NCBI GenBank assembly: GCA_944376195.1
Contig: CALWBW010000001.1
Span: 17,043 to 81,042, forward strand
Length of the DNA: 64,000 nt
Source: an uncultured Clostridia bacterium
GTDB lineage: Bacteria > Bacillota > Clostridia > Oscillospirales > QAMX01
Direction: 5' to 3'
Of this stretch, positions 1,977 to 55,419 are shown one piece after another. Positions within the stretch are counted from its first letter, which is position 1; each line of letters starts with the position of its first letter. The notes under the pieces are model-generated. The model saw only the letters and a program-made list of their open reading frames with translations. It was not told where the DNA came from and made no database searches. The translations under genes were made by a program, and so were the position numbers.

Positions 1977-3801
1977 TTGGAAACAGGATGAGGCCACGGT
2001 TAAACTGAAATTTTTTGGCCTTGGGAAAATTTTGCCCTATATTAAACCACACAAACGGCTGGTGCTTTTTATGTTCCTGTCCGTAATCGGGGAGAGTGGA
2101 CTTGCAATGTGTATCCCGCTGTTTCAGCGGTATGCCATTAATAACTTTATTGAAGCGGGAACGCTGGACGGCTTGGGCATTTACATTGTGGTATATGTCT
2201 GTGCCATTCTGGTTCAGGTGACCTGCGGTGCGCTTTGGACGTTGAATTCCATGAAAACGGAGATGTATGTGGGACGTGATCTGCGTCGCGCGGCGTTTAA
2301 TCATTTGCAGACCCTTTCTTTTACATACTTTAACCAAAACGCAGTGGGTTATATCCACGCCCGTGTTGTGTCTGACACCAACCGTATTGCCGGTACGGCC
2401 TCCTGGGGAATTATGGATCTCTGCTGGTCGGTCATTTACTTAATCGGAATCTGTATCGTCATGATCTGCCTGGACTGGAAGCTTGGTCTTATCATTGTGG
2501 CAATTACGCCGGTCGTTATGGTATTGGGCGGTCTGATCCGTCGGAAGGTTGTGGCTTCCAACCGGATTGTACGGGAAATCAATTCCCGTATCACGGGAAA
2601 TTTCAATGAAGGCATTACCGGCGCCAAAACGACGAAGACTCTGGTCATCGAAAAGAAAATGGAGGGGGAATTTAACCGCACGACGGAGGAAATGCGGCGT
2701 ACGGCCGTGCGTACGGCGCGGTATAACGCGCTCTTTATTTCCACCACTACGTTTATCTGCTCCTTTGCCATTGCCATCACGCTCTATTATGGTGGTCAGC
2801 TTTCCATGGAAGGTGCGATGATGATCGGAACACTTTCCGCTTTTACCACTTATGCAATCAGCCTGATTGATCCGGTGCAGAACATCGCTCGTATTGTGAC
2901 GGATCTTGTAACGGTGCAGGTAAACATTGAACGGTTTACGCGTTTGATCGCGACAAAACCGGACGTGACGGATACGCCGGAGGTTATCGCCAAATATGGC
3001 GATGTATTTGAACCGAAGCGTGAAAATTGGGAGCCAATCCACGGAGATATTGAATTCCGCGACGTCAGTTTCATGTACCCAGACGGGACGGAGTATGTTT
3101 TGGAACATTTCAACTTGAAAATTCCTGCCGGTACTTGTGTGGCAATCGTTGGGGAAACGGGCGCGGGAAAGAGTACGCTGGTGAATTTGGTCTGCCGTTT
3201 TTATGAGCCTACTTCCGGCCAAATCCTGATAGATGGCCGTGATTACCGGGAGCGCTCTCAGCTTTGGCTGCATTCCAACATTGGTTATGTGTTGCAGTCG
3301 CCGCATCTGTTTTCCGGTTCCGTGTTGGAAAATCTTAAATATGGAAATCCGGATGCGACCATGGAGCAGATTCAAGCGGCTGTGGAGGCTGTTTCGGCAA
3401 CTGGTATTATTGAAAAGCTGGAAAATGGTTATGACAGTGACGTCGGGGAGAGCGGCGACCTCCTTTCCACTGGCGAAAAACAGCTGCTCTCCTTTGCACG
3501 CGCCATTTTAGCGGATCCGCATATTTTTGTGCTGGATGAGGCCACTTCCTCGGTGGATACGCTGACGGAGCAGTTGATTCAAAACGCAATTGAAAAGCTT
3601 CTGGAGGGCAGAACATCTTTCCTGATCGCACACCGACTGTCGACCATTCGCCACGCGGATTTGATTCTCGTAGTACGTGCGGGGAAAATTATCGAGCAGG
3701 GTACGCATGAAGAACTTTTAAAGAAACACGGGTACTATTATTCGCTCTATACGCGTCAATATCAGGAAGAGGCGACAGAACGCATACTGGACAAAAATTG
3801 A
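1969..3801 (+). CDS. ABC exporter, fused permease-ATPase, heterodimer partner subunit
   Basis: The start overlaps the upstream stop by 8 nt, with GGGAGG 7 nt upstream. Walker A is GETGAGKST, Walker B is the canonical IFVLDEATS, and the signature is altered to LSTGEKQL. Confidence 0.9.
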   Translation: MNNWKQDEATVKLKFFGLGKILPYIKPHKRLVLFMFLSVIGESGLAMCIPLFQRYAINNFIEAGTLDGLGIYIVVYVCAILVQVTCGALWTLNSMKTEMYVGRDLRRAAFNHLQTLSFTYFNQNAVGYIHARVVSDTNRIAGTASWGIMDLCWSVIYLIGICIVMICLDWKLGLIIVAITPVVMVLGGLIRRKVVASNRIVREINSRITGNFNEGITGAKTTKTLVIEKKMEGEFNRTTEEMRRTAVRTARYNALFISTTTFICSFAIAITLYYGGQLSMEGAMMIGTLSAFTTYAISLIDPVQNIARIVTDLVTVQVNIERFTRLIATKPDVTDTPEVIAKYGDVFEPKRENWEPIHGDIEFRDVSFMYPDGTEYVLEHFNLKIPAGTCVAIVGETGAGKSTLVNLVCRFYEPTSGQILIDGRDYRERSQLWLHSNIGYVLQSPHLFSGSVLENLKYGNPDATMEQIQAAVEAVSATGIIEKLENGYDSDVGESGDLLSTGEKQLLSFARAILADPHIFVLDEATSSVDTLTEQLIQNAIEKLLEGRTSFLIAHRLSTIRHADLILVVRAGKIIEQGTHEELLKKHGYYYSLYTRQYQEEATERILDKN

Positions 3802-3903: not shown

Positions 3904-5868
3904 ATGGCGGCATTAAAAGAGGCAAGCGCGATCCTTCCAAATGGGCAGTATTTTGATAATTGGGAAGTAGCGCAGACTTATGACCGGGAACTGCATGTTG
4001 CCTGCAATCACCCGGCGGCGAGCGATAGCAACGACGGTTCGGCAGACCATCCGTTTTTGACGATTCAGGCGGCGGCAGCCCTTGCGGAGCCCGGCACAAG
4101 GGTACGTATTCATGCGGGTACCTACCGGGAAACTGTTCGTCCGCAGAAAGGCGGCGAAAGTCCCTCTCGTATGATCTCCTATGAGGCTGCGGGAGATGGC
4201 GAGGTGATTATCAAAGCTTCTACCGTTGCAACTGCATTTGAACGCAGTACGGACTGGAACCTGTATCGTTTCGGTACGCCAGTCAAGGGCGATGCGGAGC
4301 CTGTTGTATGGCTGACCAAGCTGGATCCGGATGAGTATCGCGGCTATAATCCTTTCTGCGCGGTGAATATTTTGCATGACCGCCTTTTCATTGAATATGA
4401 CAAGACGGATATGACGCCATATTTAAACCGCCGCGGCATGGTATTTGTCGATGGAAAGCCGCTTACGCAGGTTGCGCTCTATAATCAAATGGCGCAAATT
4501 CCCGGCTCTTATTGGGTAGAGGCAAATGGTCAGATTGTACACTTCCGTTTGGAAGATGATGGCGATCCTGCGGATCATGTGATCGAGCTTTCTTGCCGTG
4601 AGCAGTGCTTTGCGCCGGATATTCCTTTCCTCGGATATATTAAAGTGTCGGGACTGACCTGCGCGCACGCGTCCATGGGCGCTCCTGTACCGCAGCGCGG
4701 TGCGATATCTTGTTTCCGCGGCCATCACTGGATTATTGAGGATTGTACGATTGACTGGGCCAATGCCGTTGGTATCGACTGTGGTGTAGAATGCTGGCAT
4801 CGTCCGCATTATGAGGATCAGATTTCGGGTTATACGATCATTCGACGCAATCAGATTTATGATTGCGGTGTCTGCGGCATTGCAGGTATGTTTGCGATCA
4901 ATCTGCTGATTGAGGACAACCTGATTCAGGGAACCGGATGGCAGAAGATGGAACTTTCCTGGGAAGCTGGCGGAATCAAAGTGCATAATTGCCGCAATAG
5001 CCTTTATCGCCGGAATATTTTCACCAAAACCATTCGCTGCGATGCCTTATGGATGGACTGCGGCAATGAAAACAACCGCGTGACACAGAATTTGTTCTTA
5101 GACGGAATTGAAGCTCGTGAAGCCATTTTCATGGAATGCACGCGCGATGATGTCAATCTCTTTGATAACAATATTATTTGGAATGTGGAAGGCCGCTTCA
5201 ATGAAGATGATGTACCGCACGTTGCAGGCTCTGCGCCATGGTATGCCATGAGTGAAGATGGCAGCATTGTCAACGGTTATGGTATTTACGGAGAAGGCAC
5301 CGACTATCTGTGGATCTCCAATAACCTGATAGGTAAATGCCGCAGCGCGGGATATTTCCAAAAGCCGGTCGCATTCCGTCTTGCAGGACGTGGTGGAACG
5401 GCTCGCGACGCGAAGTTCTTCAATAATATTTTCTACGAATGCGGGGAAGCTGCGATCAAAATGCCGACGGAGAAAAATGAGTCTGAGGGCAATCTCTTCA
5501 TGAAGATGCCGTCCGGTTTCCTGCGGATTTTGTATCCGGCGCCGACTGAATGTCTGGATCTCAAAGCATGGCGTGAGTTCCATGGATTTGATTTGACGGG
5601 GGCAGAGGCCGAGTTTGAGATTGATATCGATACCGATCATTATACGCTGGAAATTCGTCCGTCTACTGCGCCGGCGCGCCGTCCCTTTGGCCGCCGTTGG
5701 GGCGAGCTGATCCGTGACCCCGCGGCTCTCCCGAAAGTAAAGGCAGACGCGAAGGCGACGATTGATTTCTTTGGAAATGAAATGACAGGCGAAGATCGAA
5801 TCGCCGGACCGTTTACGGAGCTTCCCGAGCATGTGGTGATAAATATCGACCCGCGTAAGTTAAAATAA
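3904..5868 (+). CDS. Right-handed parallel beta-helix repeat protein (DUF1565 / pectate-lyase-fold like), no signal peptide seen
   Basis: ATG at 3904 follows GGAGAAAGG; the track start at 3880 was rejected. The N-terminal motif DGSADHPFLTIQAAAALAEPGTRVRIHAGTYRE is typical of beta-helix proteins, and the body shows repetitive I/V-x-N/D-N turns. Confidence 0.7.
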   Translation: MAALKEASAILPNGQYFDNWEVAQTYDRELHVACNHPAASDSNDGSADHPFLTIQAAAALAEPGTRVRIHAGTYRETVRPQKGGESPSRMISYEAAGDGEVIIKASTVATAFERSTDWNLYRFGTPVKGDAEPVVWLTKLDPDEYRGYNPFCAVNILHDRLFIEYDKTDMTPYLNRRGMVFVDGKPLTQVALYNQMAQIPGSYWVEANGQIVHFRLEDDGDPADHVIELSCREQCFAPDIPFLGYIKVSGLTCAHASMGAPVPQRGAISCFRGHHWIIEDCTIDWANAVGIDCGVECWHRPHYEDQISGYTIIRRNQIYDCGVCGIAGMFAINLLIEDNLIQGTGWQKMELSWEAGGIKVHNCRNSLYRRNIFTKTIRCDALWMDCGNENNRVTQNLFLDGIEAREAIFMECTRDDVNLFDNNIIWNVEGRFNEDDVPHVAGSAPWYAMSEDGSIVNGYGIYGEGTDYLWISNNLIGKCRSAGYFQKPVAFRLAGRGGTARDAKFFNNIFYECGEAAIKMPTEKNESEGNLFMKMPSGFLRILYPAPTECLDLKAWREFHGFDLTGAEAEFEIDIDTDHYTLEIRPSTAPARRPFGRRWGELIRDPAALPKVKADAKATIDFFGNEMTGEDRIAGPFTELPEHVVINIDPRKLK

Positions 5869-45824: not shown

Positions 45825-47163
45825 TGCGCGGGAAGTCGCGGTACGGGCGCTTTTGGCGGTAGACGGAGGCGCCTGGAGCGATTTGACATTGGCCGCTGCG
45901 ATGCGGAAAGAAGGATTAGACGCGCGGGATGCTGCGTTTTGTACGGCGCTTTGCGCAGGCGTGCTGCAAAACCGCGCGTTGTTGGATTATCAAATTGCGG
46001 CATATTCCTCCTTGCGACTGAATAAAATATCTCCTTTTGTGCTCAATACGCTGCGTGTGGCGGCTTATCAAATTCTTTGTATGGATCGGGTGCCGCCTTC
46101 CGCTGCCGTGAATACGGCGGTGGGATTGATTCGAAAATCAGCAAATCCCAGAGCTGCAGGTTTTGCAAACGCCGTTTTGCGGCGGATTGGCGAACAGGGA
46201 AAAGCGGTCCGTCTGCCGGATGCGGACGACTGTGTCTCGTATCTTTCCGTAAAATACAGCCATCCTGCATGGTTGGTGGATCATTTTTTAAAACGGCTGG
46301 GGGAAGAAGCGGAACTTGCTCTGGCGGCAAATAATGCTGCGCCGCCGGTTACTGCACGTGTGAATACGCTGAAAGCTTCTCGGGATGAGGCGATACAGGC
46401 TCTTGAGAAGGAAGGCGTGGAGGTTTGCGCGCATGAATGGCTGCCGGATGCATTGATTTTATCACACAGCGGGAATATAGAGACATTGACGGCATTTCAA
46501 CAGGGACTTATTGCCATACAGGACGCGGCTTCTCAGCTGGACGTACTGGCGCTGGATCCACAGCCCGGCGAACGGGTGCTGGATCTCTGTGCGGCTCCCG
46601 GCGGCAAGACCTTTGCGGCGGCTGCACGGATGAAAAATTGCGGGGAAATTCAGGCGTGTGATTTGTACGAGCAGAGATTGGGTTTGGTGAAAAAAGATGC
46701 CGAGCGGCTTGGCGTTCGGATTGTAACCACGAAATGTTCCGATGCGACGCAGCCGGAACCGGCATTTTGGGAGCGGTTTGACCGTGTGTTGGTAGATGCG
46801 CCGTGTTCCGGTATGGGAGTTATACGCAGGAAGCCGGAAATTCGGTATAAAGATCCGAATACAATCTTGCAGCTTCCCGAAGTCCAGAAGAAGATTCTGT
46901 CAAACGCGGCGGATACTTTAAAAACCGGGGGAATTATGATATACTCGACTTGCAGTGTGATGGAAGAGGAGAATGAGGCGGTAGTGCGTGCGTTCCTTGC
47001 TAGTCATACACAGTTTTCTTTGGAACCGTTTTCACTTCCCGGCGGAATTGAGGCGCCGGATGGTATGGTCACACTCTGGCCGCATAGAAATGGTACGGAT
47101 GGATTTTTCCTATCAAAACTGATAAAGAAGGTTTCCTATGCTGAATCTGCGCGATTTCACTGA
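45817..47163 (+). CDS. rsmB: 16S rRNA (cytosine967-C5)-methyltransferase RsmB
   Basis: NusB-like N-terminal domain, then DLCAAPGGKT, DAPCSGMG and YSTCS. ATG at 45817 overlaps the fmt end. Confidence 0.9.
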   Translation: MRDAREVAVRALLAVDGGAWSDLTLAAAMRKEGLDARDAAFCTALCAGVLQNRALLDYQIAAYSSLRLNKISPFVLNTLRVAAYQILCMDRVPPSAAVNTAVGLIRKSANPRAAGFANAVLRRIGEQGKAVRLPDADDCVSYLSVKYSHPAWLVDHFLKRLGEEAELALAANNAAPPVTARVNTLKASRDEAIQALEKEGVEVCAHEWLPDALILSHSGNIETLTAFQQGLIAIQDAASQLDVLALDPQPGERVLDLCAAPGGKTFAAAARMKNCGEIQACDLYEQRLGLVKKDAERLGVRIVTTKCSDATQPEPAFWERFDRVLVDAPCSGMGVIRRKPEIRYKDPNTILQLPEVQKKILSNAADTLKTGGIMIYSTCSVMEEENEAVVRAFLASHTQFSLEPFSLPGGIEAPDGMVTLWPHRNGTDGFFLSKLIKKVSYAESARFH

Positions 47164-48169
47164 AACAGAATTAGAAGCACTGGTACGGGAGGCAGGTCAG
47201 CCTGCCTATCGAGCGGGCCAGCTTTTTAAATGGGCGCAATCCGGTGCGCGGAGTTTTGATAGCATGACCGATATTCCCAAAAATCTGCGTGCATTTCTGT
47301 CCGAGCGATATACGGTAACGCCGCCCGTGGAATTAAAAAAACAAGTGGCGCGCGATGGAACGCGAAAGTATCTCTGGGGTCTTTCCGATGGAAACTGTAT
47401 AGAAACGGTTTTGATGGAATATAAGCACGGATACAGCGTTTGCGTGTCGACGCAGGCTGGCTGCCGGATGGGCTGTGTCTTTTGCGCATCGACCAAAGGC
47501 GGATTTGTGCGAAACCTAACACCCGGTGAAATTTTAGAGCAGGTGCTGTATGCTGGTCTTGACGCCGGTGTACGTGTGTCCAATATTGTCCTGATGGGGA
47601 CGGGCGAACCGCTTGACAATCTGGATGCAGTATTAAAATTTATCCAGCTGGTTCATAATGAAAAAGGATTGGGAATTGGTGAACGGCACATATCCCTTTC
47701 CACAAGCGGCTTGGTAGACCGAATTTACGAATTGGAAAAACAGGCATTGCAAATTACGCTTTCTATTTCTCTCCATGCACCGAACAATACGCTTCGGTCG
47801 CAAATTATGCCGGTAAACCGGCGCTGGCCGGTGGAAGAATTGTTGGCGGCCTGCCGCTCTTACACGGAAAAAACGCATCGACGTATTTCCTATGAGTATG
47901 CGCTGATTCGCGGATTTAATGATACGGACGCCTGTGCGAGAGAATTGGTCTCCTTGTTGCGTGGTCAGCTGGCACATGTGAATCTGATTCGGTTGAATGA
48001 AATCGCAGAAAGCCCGTTAAGACCGTCTACGACGGAGACGACGCAGCGTTTTTGCAATATTTTGAATAAAAGCGGAGTGACGGCGACCGTTCGCCGTCGA
48101 CTTGGGTTTGATATAGATGCCTCCTGCGGCCAACTTCGCAGGAAATTTGAGCTTAACGGAGGGATGTGA
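47138..48169 (+). CDS. rlmN: 23S rRNA/tRNA (adenine-C2)-methyltransferase RlmN (radical SAM)
   Basis: AGQLFKW, the radical SAM cluster motif GCRMGCVFCAS, and the C-terminal DASCGQL. Confidence 0.95.
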   Translation: MLNLRDFTETELEALVREAGQPAYRAGQLFKWAQSGARSFDSMTDIPKNLRAFLSERYTVTPPVELKKQVARDGTRKYLWGLSDGNCIETVLMEYKHGYSVCVSTQAGCRMGCVFCASTKGGFVRNLTPGEILEQVLYAGLDAGVRVSNIVLMGTGEPLDNLDAVLKFIQLVHNEKGLGIGERHISLSTSGLVDRIYELEKQALQITLSISLHAPNNTLRSQIMPVNRRWPVEELLAACRSYTEKTHRRISYEYALIRGFNDTDACARELVSLLRGQLAHVNLIRLNEIAESPLRPSTTETTQRFCNILNKSGVTATVRRRLGFDIDASCGQLRRKFELNGGM

Positions 48170-48173
48170 CCCG

Positions 48174-48905
48174 ATGAATATCTTTGGGTTGAGCGATGTG
48201 GGCCTCGCCCGTGAGAATAATGAAGATACCTGCCTTTATGAGATGCGGGACGAGGGTGCCCAGTCGATTTTCGTCGTCTGCGACGGCATGGGCGGCGCAC
48301 GTGCCGGGAATGTGGCAAGCGATATTGCCGCAAATGTTTTTGTGGAGCAGATTGAGCGGCAGATTCGCCCCAGCATGAGCGCGAAGTATATGGAATCGAT
48401 ACTCCGAAATGCGGTGGATTTTGCAAATTATGATACATATCGCACGGCGCAGTCGTCTCATGAATATCAAGGTATGGGTACGACGCTGGTTGGCGGTTTT
48501 GCAAATGGGACGCAGGTGATGATAGCTAATGTAGGAGACAGCCGGGCGTACCTCTATTCGCCGGAAGGAATCCAGCGCGTTACGCGGGATCATTCGCTGG
48601 TGGAGGAGCTGGTACAGCGCGGCGAAATTACGGAGGAACAGGCCAGAGAGCATCCTCGCCGGAATCTGATTACCCGTGCGTTGGGAACCAGCCGGAAAGT
48701 GGGGGCGGACTACTACCCATTGACACTGGAACCGGATCAAAAGTTGTTGTTATGCTCGGATGGACTCTCTACAATGGTGAGGGATGAAGAGTTATTTGAA
48801 ATTTTGCATGAGGATGACATAAAACTTTGTTGCGAACGTCTAATTGATACCGCAAATATGCACGGTGGGCATGATAATATTACCGTGTTGATTCTCACTG
48901 TTTGA
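48174..48905 (+). CDS. stp: PP2C-family Ser/Thr phosphatase (Stp/PrpC)
   Basis: The motifs are SDVGLARENNEDT, VCDGMGG and GGHDNITV. ATG at 48174 follows GGAGGG. Confidence 0.9.
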   Translation: MNIFGLSDVGLARENNEDTCLYEMRDEGAQSIFVVCDGMGGARAGNVASDIAANVFVEQIERQIRPSMSAKYMESILRNAVDFANYDTYRTAQSSHEYQGMGTTLVGGFANGTQVMIANVGDSRAYLYSPEGIQRVTRDHSLVEELVQRGEITEEQAREHPRRNLITRALGTSRKVGADYYPLTLEPDQKLLLCSDGLSTMVRDEELFEILHEDDIKLCCERLIDTANMHGGHDNITVLILTV

Positions 48906-48919
48906 AAGGAGGCGAAACC

Positions 48920-51025
48920 ATGGATAGATATTTGGGAAAACTGCTGGATAACCGGTATGAAATTCTTGAAATTATCGGAACCGGCGGTATGGCTGTGGTT
49001 TATCGTGCAAGAGACCGCCTTTTAAACCGCTTCGTTGCTGTTAAAATCTTAAAAGATGAGTTCGCTCGTGATCTGGATTTTCGCCGTCGCTTCCATATGG
49101 AAAGCCAAGCGGTTGCCATGTTATCCCATCCCAACATTGTTTCGGTTTACGATGTGAACCGCTCCGACAATATTGAATATATCGTGATGGAGCTGGTTGA
49201 GGGTGTAACTTTAAAAGAATATATGGAGCGTAAAGGTGCGTTGAGTGCCGCGGAAACGTTGCATTTTGTGCCGCAGATCGCTTCGGCTCTGGAGCATGCG
49301 CATTCGCGTGGGATTATTCATCGGGATATTAAACCGCAGAATATCATCATTTTACGCGATGGAAGTTTGAAGGTTACGGATTTTGGCATAGCCCGTATGG
49401 CAGAATCACAGCAGGAAACTATGACGGGAGACGCGCTCGGCTCCGTTCATTATGTCTCGCCCGAACAGGCGCGAGGCAGTAATATCGATGCGCGTTCGGA
49501 TATTTATTCCCTCGGTGTTGTCATGTATGAAATGCTGACGGGGCGGCTTCCGTTTGAAGGTGATACGCCCGTTGCGGTTGTACTACAGCATATCAACTCC
49601 ATACCGCTTTTGCCTTCTGAGATCAAGCCGGACATTCCAACAGGACTTGAGGAAATCACGATGAAGGCCATGAGTCCTGCGCCGGAGGATCGTTACGCTT
49701 CGGCGACAGAAATGCTGATTGATTTGGACTTGTGCAAAAATGATCCCAATATTGTGTTTGATTACGGTGTGGTAAAGCCCGGCCCTTATGTGACGGATGA
49801 ACCGGAGCCAGAGCCGGAACCGGTGGTAGAACCGAATGCGGAGGAGACCGTCTTATTTGACCCGGTTCAGGAAAAACGGTTGCCGTCAAAGCGGCCCCGG
49901 CAAGAAATGGATTCCCATAGGCCGTCCAGGGCGCAGGTTCGCCAGGATCAGCGCAGGAGGGGATATCGGGATTACTCGGATTATGACGATGATTATGATG
50001 ATTTTCGTCCGCGTGCCAGGACGCCTGTCTTTGTGTTTTTAATTACAGGCATCTTGACTGCTGCGATATTCTTTGGTGGTGCGGCTTTTATCATTTCCAC
50101 AATTTTCGGAGCCGAAAATACGGCGGAGATGGATGACATCACAGCGCCGGATTTGGTTGGCAAAAATTATTCCGATGTAGTTTCCAGCATTCAGTATGCG
50201 GAGTACAATATTGTAGAGGATGAAAGCGTCTATTCGGATTCCATTGAAGAAGGCGTGATTATTTCTCAGGAACCGCCGGCCGGCCGTACGATTAAGGCTA
50301 CAACGGAGATTTATGTCACGGTCAGTTTGGGGCCAAAGAAAATTCCTCTGGTTGATTTGATCGGCGTGGAAGCGCGCGCGGCAAAACTCCGTTTGGAATC
50401 GTTGAATTTGTTGGTTTCCATGGAGTATGAAGTTTCTGATACGGTTGCGGAAGGGTATGTAATTCGGATGGATCCGGAACCGTACACGGAACTTGTCGAG
50501 GATGAGATTGTCACGCTGGTTGTAAGCCTTGGCCCGGAGGAGCGCTTTACAACGGTCCCGAATTTGATTGATATGACGGAGAGCGAAGCGGAGCGAGCCC
50601 TCGAAATCAAGAATTTGGTGTTGGGCAGTGTTATCCCGAAAGAAACGGATATAGAAGAGGAAGACGGTCTGGTGTATGACCAGAGCGTTGCGGCGGATAC
50701 GGAAGTTTCGGAAAAAACGGCGGTTGATATTTACGTATACGAATATGTGGAGCCGGATGTTCCGGACAATGATCCGGATATTCCAGGTGAAAACAATTCG
50801 TCTGACGGGGAAACAACCGGGACTGCAATTATTTGGGTGCCGCTTGACACCAGCGAAGAATATTCCATCGTGGTAATCATGTCGATGGGTGAGGTATTGT
50901 TTGAGCAGACCTATCTCTCCGAGTATGAGACGGTCCCTGTCACATTGGAAGGCAGTGGTTCTGCGATGGTCAGCGTTTACGTCAATGGTACGCTGGTCGA
51001 GGAAGAAATTGCCGTGTATGACTGA
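48920..51025 (+). CDS. pknB: PASTA-domain Ser/Thr protein kinase (PknB/PrkC)
   Basis: Kinase motifs GTGGMAVVY, VAVK, HRDIKPQN, DFG and SPE. The TM span is VFVFLITGILTAAIFFGGAAFII. Three PASTA repeats precede a C-terminal beta-rich domain. Confidence 0.95.
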   Translation: MDRYLGKLLDNRYEILEIIGTGGMAVVYRARDRLLNRFVAVKILKDEFARDLDFRRRFHMESQAVAMLSHPNIVSVYDVNRSDNIEYIVMELVEGVTLKEYMERKGALSAAETLHFVPQIASALEHAHSRGIIHRDIKPQNIIILRDGSLKVTDFGIARMAESQQETMTGDALGSVHYVSPEQARGSNIDARSDIYSLGVVMYEMLTGRLPFEGDTPVAVVLQHINSIPLLPSEIKPDIPTGLEEITMKAMSPAPEDRYASATEMLIDLDLCKNDPNIVFDYGVVKPGPYVTDEPEPEPEPVVEPNAEETVLFDPVQEKRLPSKRPRQEMDSHRPSRAQVRQDQRRRGYRDYSDYDDDYDDFRPRARTPVFVFLITGILTAAIFFGGAAFIISTIFGAENTAEMDDITAPDLVGKNYSDVVSSIQYAEYNIVEDESVYSDSIEEGVIISQEPPAGRTIKATTEIYVTVSLGPKKIPLVDLIGVEARAAKLRLESLNLLVSMEYEVSDTVAEGYVIRMDPEPYTELVEDEIVTLVVSLGPEERFTTVPNLIDMTESEAERALEIKNLVLGSVIPKETDIEEEDGLVYDQSVAADTEVSEKTAVDIYVYEYVEPDVPDNDPDIPGENNSSDGETTGTAIIWVPLDTSEEYSIVVIMSMGEVLFEQTYLSEYETVPVTLEGSGSAMVSVYVNGTLVEEEIAVYD

Positions 51026-51929
51026 TACGCTGTACGAGGGATTAATTATCCGCAGTGTGGGTGGATTGTATACGGTGGAGTGTGAGGGAGAATCGGTAGA
51101 TTGCCGCGCCAGGGGGAAGTTTCGATTGTCTGAGCTAAAACCTATGGTGGGCGACCGTGTGCTGATTGTGCGCCCCGGTATCGGAGAAGCGGTTATTCGA
51201 GAAGTTTGTGTGCGTACCAATAGCCTGATCCGTCCTGCGGTGGCCAATATTCGGACGTTGGTTGTCATTGCATCGGAGGCCCCGCCGGTTACGCAGCCAT
51301 TCCTGATTGACCGTGTAAGTGCAATTGCCGGGCATAAGGACATTGATATGATCCTCTGCGTCAATAAGTGCGACCAAAAGCGCGGAGAGAGTTTGATCGA
51401 TGTGTATACAAAGGCTGGCTTTCGCGTAATTCCTATGAGTGCGGAAACCGGAGAGGGAATAGACGAGCTGCGTTCGGTCATGACAGAAGGAATTTTTGTC
51501 CTGACCGGTAACTCCGGTGTTGGGAAGTCCAGTATTCTCAACCGGATTGATCCCACGCGAAAGGCCGTTGTGGGTGCGCTAAGCGAACGGATTGGACGTG
51601 GGCGTCAAACAACACGCCATGTGGAACTTTACAAATTGCCTTCTGGTGCCTATGTGGCAGATACGCCGGGGTTTCAATCGTTTGATGTGGAGCGGATGGA
51701 CCTGGTCTTAAAGGATGATCTGGCGCATGCGTTTCGGGAATTTGCCGACTTTATACCAAACTGCCGATATGCAGATTGCCACCATGTAAAAGAGCAGGGA
51801 TGTGCAGTGAGGCAGGCAGTTGAGGCGGGGGAAATTCCGGAAAGTCGGTATGAAAGCTATCTGATGCTTTATGAAAGTATGAAGGACATCCACGAATGGG
51901 ATTTAAAAAAAATGGGAAACCGTGGCTGA
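51018..51929 (+). CDS. rsgA: Ribosome small-subunit-dependent GTPase A
   Basis: ATG at 51018 overlaps the pknB end. The motifs are NKCD, GNSGVGKSS and DTPGF, with the zinc motif CRYADCHHVKEQGC. Confidence 0.9.
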   Translation: MTDTLYEGLIIRSVGGLYTVECEGESVDCRARGKFRLSELKPMVGDRVLIVRPGIGEAVIREVCVRTNSLIRPAVANIRTLVVIASEAPPVTQPFLIDRVSAIAGHKDIDMILCVNKCDQKRGESLIDVYTKAGFRVIPMSAETGEGIDELRSVMTEGIFVLTGNSGVGKSSILNRIDPTRKAVVGALSERIGRGRQTTRHVELYKLPSGAYVADTPGFQSFDVERMDLVLKDDLAHAFREFADFIPNCRYADCHHVKEQGCAVRQAVEAGEIPESRYESYLMLYESMKDIHEWDLKKMGNRG

Positions 51930-51938
51930 TGCGGTAGC

Positions 51939-52000
51939 AAAAACCGGGCTGCGCGCTATGATGATGTTGTATAGACATGATCGGGCGCAGCCCGGTTTTT
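51939..52000. terminator. Long-loop terminator-like inverted repeat after rsgA
   Basis: Perfect 16-bp arms AAAAACCGGGCTGCGC (51939-51954) / GCGCAGCCCGGTTTTT (51985-52000) separated by 30 nt. Confidence 0.5.
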
Positions 52001-52020
52001 ATCGTCAGGAGGTTGGTGCT

Positions 52021-52167
52021 GTGTGCAGACGTTATAAATGTATTGGTTCTATCCTGCTGGCGCTTGCCGCCGGCGCAGTAGCCGCGTTGCTTTTCCCTGT
52101 CTGGCTCATTGCTTCCTTATTGGCTGTGGTAGTGATTGTGCTTGGAATTTTGCTGGTGTTGGGTTGA
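52021..52167 (+). CDS. Possible 48-aa hydrophobic mini-protein
   Basis: GTG at 52021 lies 7 nt after AGGAGGT. The sequence is VCRRYKCIGSILLALAAGAVAALLFPVWLIASLLAVVVIVLGILLVLG, with two hydrophobic spans. I recognised no homology, and the longer track ORF (51922) spans the terminator. Confidence 0.35.
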   Translation: MCRRYKCIGSILLALAAGAVAALLFPVWLIASLLAVVVIVLGILLVLG

Positions 52168-52188
52168 ATGAAAAAGGAGGGTTTTGGA

Positions 52189-52260
52189 GTGCGTATCATC
52201 GTTTGGAAATCTCCCGCTTTTCTGCGGGGTATTTGGAGACTTTTCCTCCGAACAAAGTAA
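52189..52260 (+). CDS. spoVM: SpoVM-like 23-aa amphipathic sporulation peptide (absent from the ORF track)
   Basis: GTG at 52189 lies 7 nt after AAAGGAGGG. It translates to (M)RIIVWKSPAFLRGIWRLFLRTK. This aligns with Bacillus subtilis SpoVM MKFYTIKLPKFLGGIVRAMLGSFRKD at K-x-P-x-F-L-x-G-I-x-R. A terminator follows, and the next genes are sipL-like and spoIVA. Confidence 0.65.
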   Translation: MRIIVWKSPAFLRGIWRLFLRTK

Positions 52261-52294
52261 ATTTGTTTTAAAAATCAACGCGAATACCGACTTG

Positions 52295-52338
52295 ATCGGC
52301 ACCCTATTATGTTGTAGCAGGGATGCCGATCTTTTTTT
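52295..52338 (+). terminator. Rho-independent terminator after the spoVM-like ORF
   Basis: ATCGGCACCCT / AGGGATGCCGAT stem with one bulge and a 13-nt loop, followed by CTTTTTTTG. Confidence 0.65.
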
Positions 52339-52418
52339 GTTCTGAATTGAAAACTCCTTACATATAAATGAACCATCATTGGCGGGCTGCGGCCGGCTGA
52401 AACAGGGAGGATTGCTCG

Positions 52419-53936
52419 GTGGAGTTACTGAAAAACACAATACGCTATCAGCGTCAGGTCGCGCGGCAGACCGCATATTGTGAAGAAAGCGCGGAAAGCA
52501 TCGTGCCGGACACGCTGCCGGATATTGCGCGAATTGTAGACGCGACGGGTACCGCTTATATTCGGGATTGGGAGTTGGGTACGGACGAAATACTTGTCAA
52601 ATGTACCGTACGGACGTCTGTCCTATATATGGCGGAAGAGGACCAAAAACTCTATAAAGTGGAGACGCCGATCTCTTTTACACAAAGGATTGAATTGCGC
52701 GGCGCCGAACCGGACTGCGATGTGCTGTGTTCCTGCTCACTGGTCTGTACGGATGCACGCGCTATGAATCCACGTAAAATTTCCGTGCGTGTCAATGTGG
52801 CGATCACGCCCCGGCTTTATGCGAAGACAGAGGAATCGTTTTCCACTGGTGTGAACGATACTCGCGAGTGCTGTATTAAAACGGAGACGGTGACCTATGC
52901 CGCTGTATCTGCGGTTTCCTACAAAAATTTCACCTTAGTTGAGGATATTGATATTCCGGAGAACAACGGAAGCATCAGAGCGGTTTTGCGTTCGGAGTTG
53001 CGTATCAAACCGGTTGACGTAAAATTGATGGCCAATCGTATTGTCGTGAAAGCGGAAGCAGAGGTAATCGCATTATGTGAAAATTCAGAAGGCGAATATC
53101 TCCGGGTGGAACGGACGTTTGGTTTCACGCAAATGGCAGATGTCCCGGGTGCGGATGAATCACTGACTGCAAATGTGGACTTTGGACTTCGCAGTTTTGA
53201 ATTGGATCCTGCGCTGGATATGTCCGGTGATTCCCGATATCTCTCGCTGAGCGCCGGGGTTATCATGAATATGGAAGTGTCGCAGAACACGCAGATTGAA
53301 ATTGTCACGGATCTCTATGGAACCCGGCGGCGCTCTTCACTTGTCATGCGGGACGTTGTATTAACGGGAATTTCAGAGTCACGGTCTTGTAAAGCATACG
53401 CTTCGGAGCATATTGATGCCGCTATACCTATTAAGCAAATGATCGATCAGCGAATTCAGGTAGAAGAAGCGGCGGAGCATGTGCCGGGAGAAACCAGCGC
53501 TACCATAGGTGCGATGATTTCGGTGCTGTGCGTGGGAGACGACGGCGCTTATTATAATCTCGTCCGACGGATTCCGCTTTCTTTTGAAGCTGGGGCGGAA
53601 GTCCCCACTCGTGTCAAAACGGAAATTCAGCTTTTCGATGTGACGGCTCCGCCATCCGGCGGACTGGATGTGGAAATCAGCGCAACAGTATCTGCGGGAG
53701 AAGAAAAAGCCCGGCGTGTTGCCATGGTAGACGCTGTGGAGTGGGGAGAAGAGTATCCCGTAAATGAATACAGCCGTATGACGGCGTTAATACGCCGGGT
53801 GACGGGCGAAGAAACTTTATGGGATATCGCGCGAGAATATCATACGACTGTGGACGCAATTGCGCTTGCCAATCAGATGAACGCGAACGGGATGCCTACA
53901 AAGGGCGAACTTTTGCTGATCCCCATGAAAAAGTGA
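52419..53936 (+). CDS. SipL/SpoVID-like spore morphogenesis protein (DUF3794/SPOCS domains plus C-terminal LysM)
   Basis: GTG start 6 nt after GGAGGA. The N-terminus ...ESIVPDTLPDIARIVDATG...ILVKCTVRTSVLY is typical of DUF3794. The C-terminal LysM is ETLWDIAREYHTTVDAIALANQM...GELLLIP. It lies 10 nt upstream of spoIVA. Confidence 0.7.
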   Translation: MELLKNTIRYQRQVARQTAYCEESAESIVPDTLPDIARIVDATGTAYIRDWELGTDEILVKCTVRTSVLYMAEEDQKLYKVETPISFTQRIELRGAEPDCDVLCSCSLVCTDARAMNPRKISVRVNVAITPRLYAKTEESFSTGVNDTRECCIKTETVTYAAVSAVSYKNFTLVEDIDIPENNGSIRAVLRSELRIKPVDVKLMANRIVVKAEAEVIALCENSEGEYLRVERTFGFTQMADVPGADESLTANVDFGLRSFELDPALDMSGDSRYLSLSAGVIMNMEVSQNTQIEIVTDLYGTRRRSSLVMRDVVLTGISESRSCKAYASEHIDAAIPIKQMIDQRIQVEEAAEHVPGETSATIGAMISVLCVGDDGAYYNLVRRIPLSFEAGAEVPTRVKTEIQLFDVTAPPSGGLDVEISATVSAGEEKARRVAMVDAVEWGEEYPVNEYSRMTALIRRVTGEETLWDIAREYHTTVDAIALANQMNANGMPTKGELLLIPMKK

Positions 53937-53946
53937 GGTGTGACAT

Positions 53947-55419
53947 ATGGAACATATTTATGAACAAATTGCGGAGCGTACCGGCGGTGATATTTATATT
54001 GGTGTTGTCGGACCGGTCAGAACGGGAAAATCCACGTTTATCAAACGTTTTATGGACTGTATTGTCCTGCCGAAAATCGAAAATGTCTACATGCGGGAAC
54101 GCGCCCGTGATGAATTGCCGCAGTCCGGCTCCGGGCGTACCATTATGACGGCAGAGCCGAAGTTTGTGCCGGAGGAAGCGGTGGAAATCAAATTTGACGA
54201 CAGCGCGACGATGCGGGTACGTTTGATAGACTGTGTGGGGTACATGGTGGACGGCGCGTTGGGGCAATTTGAAGATGATGTACCGCGTATGGTCATGACG
54301 CCCTGGTCCGATACGGAATTGCCGATGGCGGAAGCAGCAGAAATTGGAACACGTAAGGTGATTACCGAACACTCTACCATCGGACTTGTGATCACAACGG
54401 ATGGAACTATTACAGAAATTGACCGTCACGATTATCTGGAAGCGGAAGATCGTGTTATCTCAGAGTTAAAGGCAATCGGAAAGCCGTTTCTGGTCGTAGT
54501 AAATTCGCGTGACCCGGATGGCGAAGCGGCTCGCCAGGTGTGTGAGGAGATTACAGAAAAACACAAGGTTACGTGCTGCGCGGTCAACTGTTTGACATTG
54601 GAAGAGCGAGGAATCACAGAACTGCTAAAATCTGTGTTATACGAATTCCCCATGAAGGAATTGGGTTTGATCCTTCCTTCCTGGGCTTCCGGACTGGAAG
54701 AAGGCCATGCGGTAAAGGCGGCGATTTACGAGAGTTTGCTTTCCGCTGCACGGAATGTCAGTTGCCTCCGCAGCATTTATCCTATGACTGCATCGTTATG
54801 TTCTTGTCCGTATATCAGCGGAGCGAGAGTGGAATCCATTGACTTGGGGCGTGGTGCGGCAATTGCGACGTTGGACATTCCGCAAGAAGTCTATTATGGT
54901 ATCATTGAGGAAGAAGCCGGTTTGGAAATTCACGACGAGAGCGAAATTATTCCACTTTTTCGGGAACTTGCTGAAGCAAAACGGAAATATGACCGGATTG
55001 CACCCGCACTGGAACGGGTCCGTAATGTTGGATACGGAATTGTTATGCCAGAGCAGGAAGAATTGACGTTGGAAGAACCGGAACTGGTGCGGCAAGGGGG
55101 ACGGTTTGGCGTGCGGTTGCGTGCCAGCGCACCGAGCATTCATTTGATTCGCGCGGATATTGAAACGGAGGTTTCGCCGGCTGTTGGATCCGAACGGCAG
55201 AGTGAGGAACTGGTGCAGTATATCATGCAAGAATTTGAAGGGGATGCAGGACGAATTTGGCAATCCAACATTTTTGGAAAATCGCTGCATGAACTCGTGA
55301 CGGAAGGTTTGAACGCCAAATTGAATCATATGCCCGACGAAGCCCGCAACAAGCTTCGTGAGACGATCCAGCGGATCATTAATGAGGGAAGCGGAGGTTT
55401 GATTTGCATCATCCTTTGA
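53947..55419 (+). CDS. spoIVA: Stage IV sporulation protein A
   Basis: MEHIYEQIAERTGGDIYIGVVGPVRTGKSTFIKRFMD carries the Walker A. The 490-aa length and the C-terminus ...RIINEGSGGLICIIL are characteristic. Confidence 0.95.
   Translation: MEHIYEQIAERTGGDIYIGVVGPVRTGKSTFIKRFMDCIVLPKIENVYMRERARDELPQSGSGRTIMTAEPKFVPEEAVEIKFDDSATMRVRLIDCVGYMVDGALGQFEDDVPRMVMTPWSDTELPMAEAAEIGTRKVITEHSTIGLVITTDGTITEIDRHDYLEAEDRVISELKAIGKPFLVVVNSRDPDGEAARQVCEEITEKHKVTCCAVNCLTLEERGITELLKSVLYEFPMKELGLILPSWASGLEEGHAVKAAIYESLLSAARNVSCLRSIYPMTASLCSCPYISGARVESIDLGRGAAIATLDIPQEVYYGIIEEEAGLEIHDESEIIPLFRELAEAKRKYDRIAPALERVRNVGYGIVMPEQEELTLEEPELVRQGGRFGVRLRASAPSIHLIRADIETEVSPAVGSERQSEELVQYIMQEFEGDAGRIWQSNIFGKSLHELVTEGLNAKLNHMPDEARNKLRETIQRIINEGSGGLICIIL

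Follow-up and report, generated by a model that had tools for sequence, protein, structure and literature searches.

A probable, divergent spoVM gene of 23 codons between a small membrane-protein gene and sipL in an uncultured gut Oscillospirales bacterium

The 64-kb stretch of DNA analysed here (the window) is from an uncultured gut bacterium of the Oscillospirales that is Butyricicoccaceae-like. Its SpoIVA and that of Candidatus Allobutyricicoccus pentlandensis share 92% identity. The genes and signals around the frame under study are as follows, in window coordinates.

47138–48169: rlmN (Pfam).
Upstream of spoVM, in an array with prkC and rsgA: PP2C phosphatase gene (Pfam).
48902–51025: prkC (Pfam).
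50889–51929: rsgA (Pfam).
51939–52000, plus strand: long hairpin of about 28 pairs with A5/T5 flanks, between the rsgA stop codon and the ribosome-binding site of TM48.
52021–52167, plus strand: TM48, 48 codons starting with GTG behind the ribosome-binding site CAGGAGG at 52006–52012, encoding a very hydrophobic two-helix membrane protein.
52173–52181, plus strand: ribosome-binding site AAAGGAGGG, with a 7-nt spacer to the GTG, read directly.
52189–52260, plus strand: spoVM ortholog, 23 codons and a stop codon, product MRIIVWKSPAFLRGIWRLFLRTK.
52294–52338, plus strand: intrinsic terminator, made of a hairpin (52294–52331) and a T7 tract (52332–52338).
52419–53936, plus strand: sipL, SpoIVA-interacting coat morphogenetic gene (Pfam PF12673 (SPOCS), 1.6e-21, and PF01476 (LysM)).
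53947–55419, plus strand: spoIVA, coat basement-layer ATPase and presumed SpoVM binding partner (Pfam PF09547, PF20438 and PF20439).

The frame at 52189–52260 consists of a GTG codon (52189–52191), 22 further sense codons and a TAA stop codon (52258–52260), and its product is (M)RIIVWKSPAFLRGIWRLFLRTK. The original prediction had placed here a GTG codon 7 nt past a strong ribosome-binding site, opening 23 codons, and both the position and the frame are as claimed. The terminator described after the frame is real; it folds with −23.3 kcal/mol (z = −2.9 relative to dinucleotide-shuffled sequences) and begins 34 nt past the stop codon, where 35 nt had been given. Pfam also agreed with the sipL-like gene and the spoIVA gene announced just downstream (SPOCS and LysM in the first, SpoIVA domains in the second). 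The statement that the frame lies at the end of a prkC-rsgA array as in Bacillus was right in part: the frame follows PP2C-prkC-rsgA, but rpe, thiN and rpmB are absent. Neither rpe nor thiN is present between rsgA and the frame, and a search of the 64-kb window with an rpmB query gave no match. In addition, rsgA and spoVM are separated by the 48-codon TM48 gene, of which the earlier description made no mention.

An ATG codon at 52168, in frame with spoVM, would yield 30 residues. This longer version was rejected: it has no ribosome-binding site, and most relatives have an ATG at the position of the window's GTG. The 23-codon reading is correct, since in one relative (L085) there is no in-frame start codon between the upstream stop codon and the ATG. 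Three ENA contigs carry an identical locus. Their gene callers did not call the 23-codon frame and called TM48 as an over-extended ORF of 81 residues. The spoVM gene is missed by automatic annotation because it is very short and because its scores against the family models are too low.

Relatives at a useful distance were gathered via TM48 homologs and via SipL; the loci are designated by L numbers. Ten related metagenome contigs (within L085–L091 and L095–L098) gave eight distinct DNA versions of the 23-codon frame, and an eleventh contig (L092) ends inside it. The peptide of L086, the closest of these relatives, is identical to that of the window and also has a GTG start, the start codon being ATG in all other versions. 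The peptide is MRVIVWKSPAFLRGILKLLFRAK in L087 and MRIIVWKSPAFLRGLLKLLFRAG in L089 and L095, with other variants in L091 and L096. L085 and L097 share the peptide MRVIVWKSPVFLRGILKLLFRAK despite at least 12 synonymous differences. A GGAGG-type ribosome-binding site is located 7–9 nt 5' of the start codon in all relatives. Among the eight distinct sequences, the variable sites at codon positions 1, 2 and 3 number 9, 6 and 18, respectively. Pairwise dN ranged from 0.02 to 0.26, and dS from about 0.6 to saturation. The dN/dS ratio was approximately 0.01–0.2 in most comparisons and at most 0.37 for the closest pairs, which have only 2–4 differing sites. Alignability among relatives ends at the spoVM stop codon, the spacer and the terminator beyond it not being conserved. 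Judged from these alignments, the 23-codon frame is a translated gene under purifying selection and not a chance ORF. Loss of the frame in close relatives, which had been named beforehand as a refutation, was not seen: the frame is intact in eight distinct relatives. A minus-strand ORF (52117–52476) and an ORF in the +2 frame (52038–52271) were discarded as candidates, the variable sites being third positions of spoVM and the flanks not being conserved.

A chance, untranslated ORF in an intergenic spacer could be very short, as this one is. It could likewise go uncalled in the three identical ENA contigs and leave its exact peptide absent from a collection of 15 billion predicted proteins (none of the window-clade and Oscillibacter-type peptides was found in that collection). 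It would not explain, however, the maintenance of frame, length, start codon and ribosome-binding site in eight distinct relatives, the dominance of third-position variation, dN/dS values well below 1, the end of similarity at the stop codon, or a homology to SpoVM far above that of shuffled controls (see below). This reading is extremely improbable and is effectively refuted.

The closest named relative, Candidatus Allobutyricicoccus pentlandensis (L004), has DNA unrelated to the window 5' of the sipL promoter, and its homology to the window picks up again just past the spoVM terminator. The synteny break between L004 and the window falls exactly at this terminator. Positions 1–2140 of L004 are without a clear long ORF and the contig ends after 2.2 kb, so it is uninformative on spoVM. 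L005 and L084 have too little sequence upstream of sipL for a spoVM check. In L085, a 2.6-kb insertion (280–2940) with genes for a MarR-like regulator and a MATE-type efflux protein, the latter frameshifted, is located between an intact spoVM and sipL. The SipL of L085 is 66% identical to that of the window. L084, with 99.8% identity to L085 where the two overlap, belongs to the same species.

The sole CATA-type −10-like element in 51400–52420 is found at 52361–52369 (plus strand, CATATAAAT). It is the conserved CATATAAA element of sipL, lies within a stretch conserved with L004, L084 and L085, and is probably the sipL-spoIVA promoter. The place of the frame directly 5' of sipL, with a hairpin and U-tract between the two, could also suit a leader peptide or upstream ORF that regulates sipL-spoIVA by its translation, for example through the following hairpin. 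Three observations speak against such a function. The amino-acid sequence of the frame is conserved, whereas the downstream spacer and terminator are not; the 2.6-kb, two-gene insertion of L085 parts the ORF from sipL and the ORF is still intact; and at 52361 sipL is preceded by a conserved CATATAAA element of its own. We therefore give very little credit to regulation by a leader peptide.

The window peptide matched the NCBIfam model NF033436 (SpoVM_broad) with 15.4 bits (E = 0.014), residues 1–23 aligning on positions 1–23 of the 26 of the model. This was its sole NCBIfam family match and it is below the curated cutoff. The curated cutoffs (31 bits for NF033436 and 20.6 bits for Pfam PF08183) are operational annotation thresholds and not a biological property. 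A Pfam search of the window peptide, PF08183 included, gave no match; four relatives accepted by NF033436 were also missed by Pfam. A profile of the window clade (A4) was compared by hhalign with a canonical profile (A5) built from accepted SpoVMs, including that of B. subtilis. They matched with 96.6% probability and a score of 36.5, without gaps over positions 1–22. The best score among 200 column-shuffled SpoVM-profile controls was 14.1, so the profile match is not compositional. Alignment to the SpoVM family models, proposed beforehand as a check, thus indicates homology by profile comparison, though the window peptide itself stays below the NF033436 cutoff. The register K-x-P-x-F-L-x-G-I-x-R with B. 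subtilis SpoVM, also proposed beforehand, is correct and ungapped. The B. subtilis SpoVM sequence used as a query is validated by its full-length matches to PF08183 and NF011327. A phmmer search with the 30-residue version against 1.84 billion representatives was set aside, since it returned only two matches, both spurious. The eukaryote-like proteins P0005 (724 aa) and P0006 (604 aa) have tandem repeats with ...YQSPAYCRGLWESLLL... or ...VSPVFLRGLW..., a chance resemblance. No second SpoVM-like ORF was found within the 64-kb window.

The NF033436 scores of small ORFs at this locus position, the window peptide (15.4 bits) included, form a graded series. Five values pass the cutoff (40.7, 38.0, 36.8, 35.7 and 33.1 bits) and four fall below it (21.3, 16.9, 16.4 and 15.4 bits). 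The passing ORFs are those of L014 (40.7 bits), L031 (38.0 bits), L010 (36.8 bits), L101 (35.7 bits) and L011 (33.1 bits). L103 (MNIVVWRSPKALRGILKKLFGIKEET, 21.3 bits) and L099 (MNIVVWRSPKALRGLLRRLFGMKKA, 16.4 bits) are intermediates. NCBI lists the L101-type and L031-type peptides as SpoVM (MCI9036421.1 and MGN0528132.1, respectively). These annotated Oscillospiraceae/Eubacterium proteins (MCI9036421.1 is MKIVVIKSPKILNGILRRIFGIKG) are encoded at the same TM48-spoVM position as the window peptide, with sipL next where it is recognizable. They align with it over the full length without gaps in the profile comparison and have the S8-P9 and G14-I15-L16 regions in common. Unlike the window peptide, they pass NF033436 (35.7 and 38.0 bits), carry I or V at position 6 and end in a G-I-K-type C-terminus.

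The residues R2, W6, K7, P9, F11, L12, G14, I15 and R17 are present in the window peptide, and the eight close relatives all have Pro at position 9 as well. Across SpoVMs no residue but Pro9 is invariant, and it is needed for the recognition of convex membranes (PMC5607322). K2 and I15 of SpoVM are needed for cortex and checkpoint function, and I6 for SpoIVA binding, its partner residue being G486 in B. subtilis SpoIVA (PMC5607322). At the functionally important positions K2, I6, I15 and R17, the window peptide has a conservative R2 and a still hydrophobic W6, and it keeps I15 and R17. W6 is also found in the Oscillibacter-type intermediates L099 and L103, both of which have R13 too. The window SpoIVA ends in ...EGSGGLICIIL, with a Gly at the seventh position from the end. 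Counted from the C-terminus, we take this Gly to be at the position of B. subtilis G486. No covariation between W6 and SpoIVA is visible, as the SpoIVA C-terminus is identical in W6 and V6 lineages. In C. difficile, SpoIVA has an Asn at the position of B. subtilis G486 (PMC5607322). The description of the product as a basic, amphipathic peptide is borne out: it has 23 residues, a net charge of +6 and a hydrophobic moment of 0.45, against 0.32 in B. subtilis SpoVM. When each peptide is compared with shuffled versions of itself, neither moment is significant (P = 0.09 for the window peptide).

With SpoIVA, 80 species-level loci were fetched, and a small ORF was found at the spoVM position in four of them (L010, L011, L014 and L031). 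In all four a TM48 homolog directly precedes it and spoIVA comes further on. A recognizable sipL lies between the small ORF and spoIVA in L010, L011 and L014; no sipL match was found between them in L031. Further lineages were sampled via TM48 (L099, an Oscillibacter, and L101, L103 and L105). These show TM48, a gap of 12–16 nt, a SpoVM-like ORF and then sipL. The order TM48-spoVM-sipL was thus seen in the window, L097, L010, L011, L014, L099, L101, L103 and L105. It is independent of the upstream gene, which is rsgA, carD or an aspartate kinase. spoIVA comes next after sipL in most of these lineages but not in L101, and three transporter genes are located between sipL and spoIVA in L099 and L103. 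In L044 (Heritagella-like), the ORF between TM48 and sipL (3014–3103) is MKVVVVRGKGLVGFLLRRVFGIRREAVQP, with 10.6 bits; its second half is SpoVM-like, and it is without the otherwise invariant Pro9. L039 has a TM48 homolog of the L044 kind at 3922–4056, probably with a Pro9-less ORF downstream. Linkage of TM48, spoVM and sipL, usually with spoIVA, extends over several Oscillospirales genera, and it is not described in the SpoVM literature considered.

The TM48 protein (MCRRYKCIGSILLALAAGAVAALLFPVWLIASLLAVVVIVLGILLVLG, 48 residues) gave only noise-level matches to membrane proteins in Pfam and NCBIfam, and no family. A search with a profile of the TM48 family returned 717 proteins at E ≤ 10. 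The best 120 of these are mostly of 46–52 residues, with a minority reaching about 90, and those that bear a name are, with one exception, called hypothetical. The consensus is ..CR.LG.CALALG.GILIAAIFPVG.LLFLVAFLLI.CGC.C.RR, with invariant G18, P26, A35 and I39. AlphaFold predicts a helical hairpin for the 48-residue protein (helices 4–22 and 29–47, pLDDT 73). Wherever a contig extends far enough past TM48, a spoVM ORF follows; the gap between the two is 21 nt in the window and 12–21 nt across the lineages inspected. spoVM is very probably co-transcribed with TM48, the transcript ending at the terminator 52294–52338.

The original prediction had found no SigE-type promoter upstream of the frame, and we agree: the window clade shows no recognizable one. 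A search of 51400–52189 for SigE/SigK-type promoters (xATAnnnT plus an ATA or AC −35 element) gave none, and no site passed a sigma-70 scan. Of nine more distant lineages, eight have an AC-N16-17-(C/T/G)ATAnnnT motif 31–41 nt 5' of the TM48 start. The carriers are L010, L011, L014, L031, L044, L099, L103 and L105; the exception, L101, has only a −10-like TATATAAT. AC-N16-17-xATAnnnT is expected anywhere in about 5% of random 130-mers. SigE and SigK share their −10 element, and AC is a SigK-type −35 element (PMC3789822). The motif before TM48 is promoter-like and would correspond to a mother-cell-type promoter with a SigK-like −35 element. It is found in most of the lineages that pass NF033436 (not in the MCI9036421.1-type L101), in contrast to the window clade.

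The TM48-spoVM unit of the window is set apart from the rsgA operon by the strong hairpin at 51939–52000. The 101 nt that contain it (51925–52025) fold with −47.6 kcal/mol (z = −5.9). An Rfam search of 51700–52500 gave only a sub-threshold microRNA hairpin match, on this same hairpin. It hardly varies among seven distinct sequences, while synonymous sites of the spoVM frame, a few hundred nucleotides further on, are saturated; one of the 30 predicted pairs of the hairpin shows a compensatory change. The hairpin is probably the rsgA terminator. Its degree of sequence conservation suggests more than a plain terminator, and it may also hold signals that drive TM48-spoVM. A weak GTAGCA-N17-TATGAT in its 5' half might, speculatively, be a promoter.

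The frame at 52189–52260 is a real gene, evolves under purifying selection and is both homologous and syntenic to annotated SpoVMs. The initial assignment as a spoVM-like gene holds in view of the sub-threshold NF033436 match, the profile–profile homology, and the passing orthologs at the same position. The peptide alone gives a sub-threshold match, and its identity as SpoVM follows from transitive homology and synteny. We consider it highly probable that this is the spoVM gene of this Oscillospirales bacterium. Its product is a new divergent ortholog of a known family, with 23 residues, W6, R13 and an R-x-K/G C-terminus.

Like B. subtilis SpoVM (26 aa; PF08183, NF011327/NF033436), with which it aligns without gaps, the window product is very small, basic and amphipathic. 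Of its 23 residues, nine are shared with B. subtilis SpoVM (M1, K7, P9, F11, L12, G14, I15, R17 and L20). As in B. subtilis, spoVM is downstream of prkC-rsgA and the SpoIVA partner has a Gly seventh from the C-terminus. The window peptide differs by having 23 residues instead of 26, with R2 for K2, W6 for I6 and R13 for G13. It is below the cutoffs of both family models, and its gene has no recognizable SigE promoter. This gene is not beside rpe, thiN and rpmB; a co-oriented TM48 precedes it and sipL-spoIVA follow. The TM48-spoVM pairing has no counterpart in B. subtilis. In C. difficile, spoVM is likewise the second of two genes, the first (CD25622) encoding about 50 residues (PMC5607322), and SipL, not SpoVID, is the partner of SpoIVA as in the window. 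Unlike in the window, the C. difficile spoVM is near rpmB and away from spoIVA-sipL, which there come in the order spoIVA then sipL. TM48 is likened to CD25622 by description, that is by protein size and by its place before spoVM, and may be its counterpart. CD25622 has been reported as restricted to the Peptostreptococcaceae (Ribis et al. 2017, PMC5607322).

By analogy with its B. subtilis and C. difficile homologs, the window SpoVM would be made in the mother cell. Its helix, kinked at Pro9, would be embedded in the outer forespore membrane, which is convex, and would help to tether SpoIVA there, and SipL via SpoIVA, allowing the basement layer of the coat to form on the forespore. Mother-cell expression, sensing of membrane curvature and SpoIVA binding by this peptide are inferred, as is any role of TM48; the SpoVM mechanism is the most likely one, given the homology and the adjacency to sipL-spoIVA. 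The C. difficile SpoVM binds SpoIVA and is largely dispensable, including for SpoIVA encasement (PMC5607322), so a modest contribution of the window SpoVM would be unsurprising.

The same dispensability in C. difficile (PMC5607322) could also be read in favour of a real small protein with a function other than that of SpoVM, the resemblance being due to common ancestry or amphipathicity only. Such a protein might, for example, form a two-peptide membrane module with TM48 (in cortex synthesis, membrane integrity or as a toxin-like peptide). The tight and universal pairing with TM48, which B. subtilis lacks, would fit this, as would the score below the curated family cutoff, residues 6 and 13 unlike those of canonical SpoVM and the failure to find a sporulation promoter in the window. 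Unbroken intermediates nevertheless lead from the window peptide to NCBI-named SpoVMs at the same locus position, and Pro9, I15 and R17 are retained. spoVM moreover adjoins sipL-spoIVA in many lineages, and eight of the nine more distant ones carry the mother-cell-type promoter motif. We regard a function other than that of SpoVM as unlikely.

Under the preferred SpoVM reading, a further proposal is tentative and, in our judgement, probably goes too far. SpoVM would be the second product of an obligate TM48-spoVM unit in the Oscillospirales, perhaps in Clostridia generally; TM48 could be the counterpart of CD25622; and W6 and R13 would represent a lineage-specific re-tuning of the interface between SpoVM and SpoIVA/SipL. 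In most lineages inspected, the TM48-spoVM unit is joined to sipL, and usually to spoIVA too, in a compact coat-basement-layer locus.

The distribution of SpoVM in Clostridia has been described as patchy ("found in some clostridia"; bioRxiv 10.1101/2022.02.25.481979). In the gut Oscillospirales clade described here, spoVM is missed by gene callers because of its shortness and by the curated model because of its divergence, which suggests that part of this patchiness is an annotation artefact. The clade also provides natural variants at functionally mapped SpoVM positions (I6W, G13R and a shorter C-terminus). TM48, a small and very conserved membrane protein whose gene accompanies spoVM and sipL, is a candidate coat or cortex morphogenetic factor in Clostridia. 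The interest of the locus lies mainly in a spoVM gene that is under-counted in Clostridia and in the lead that it gives to its partner gene TM48.
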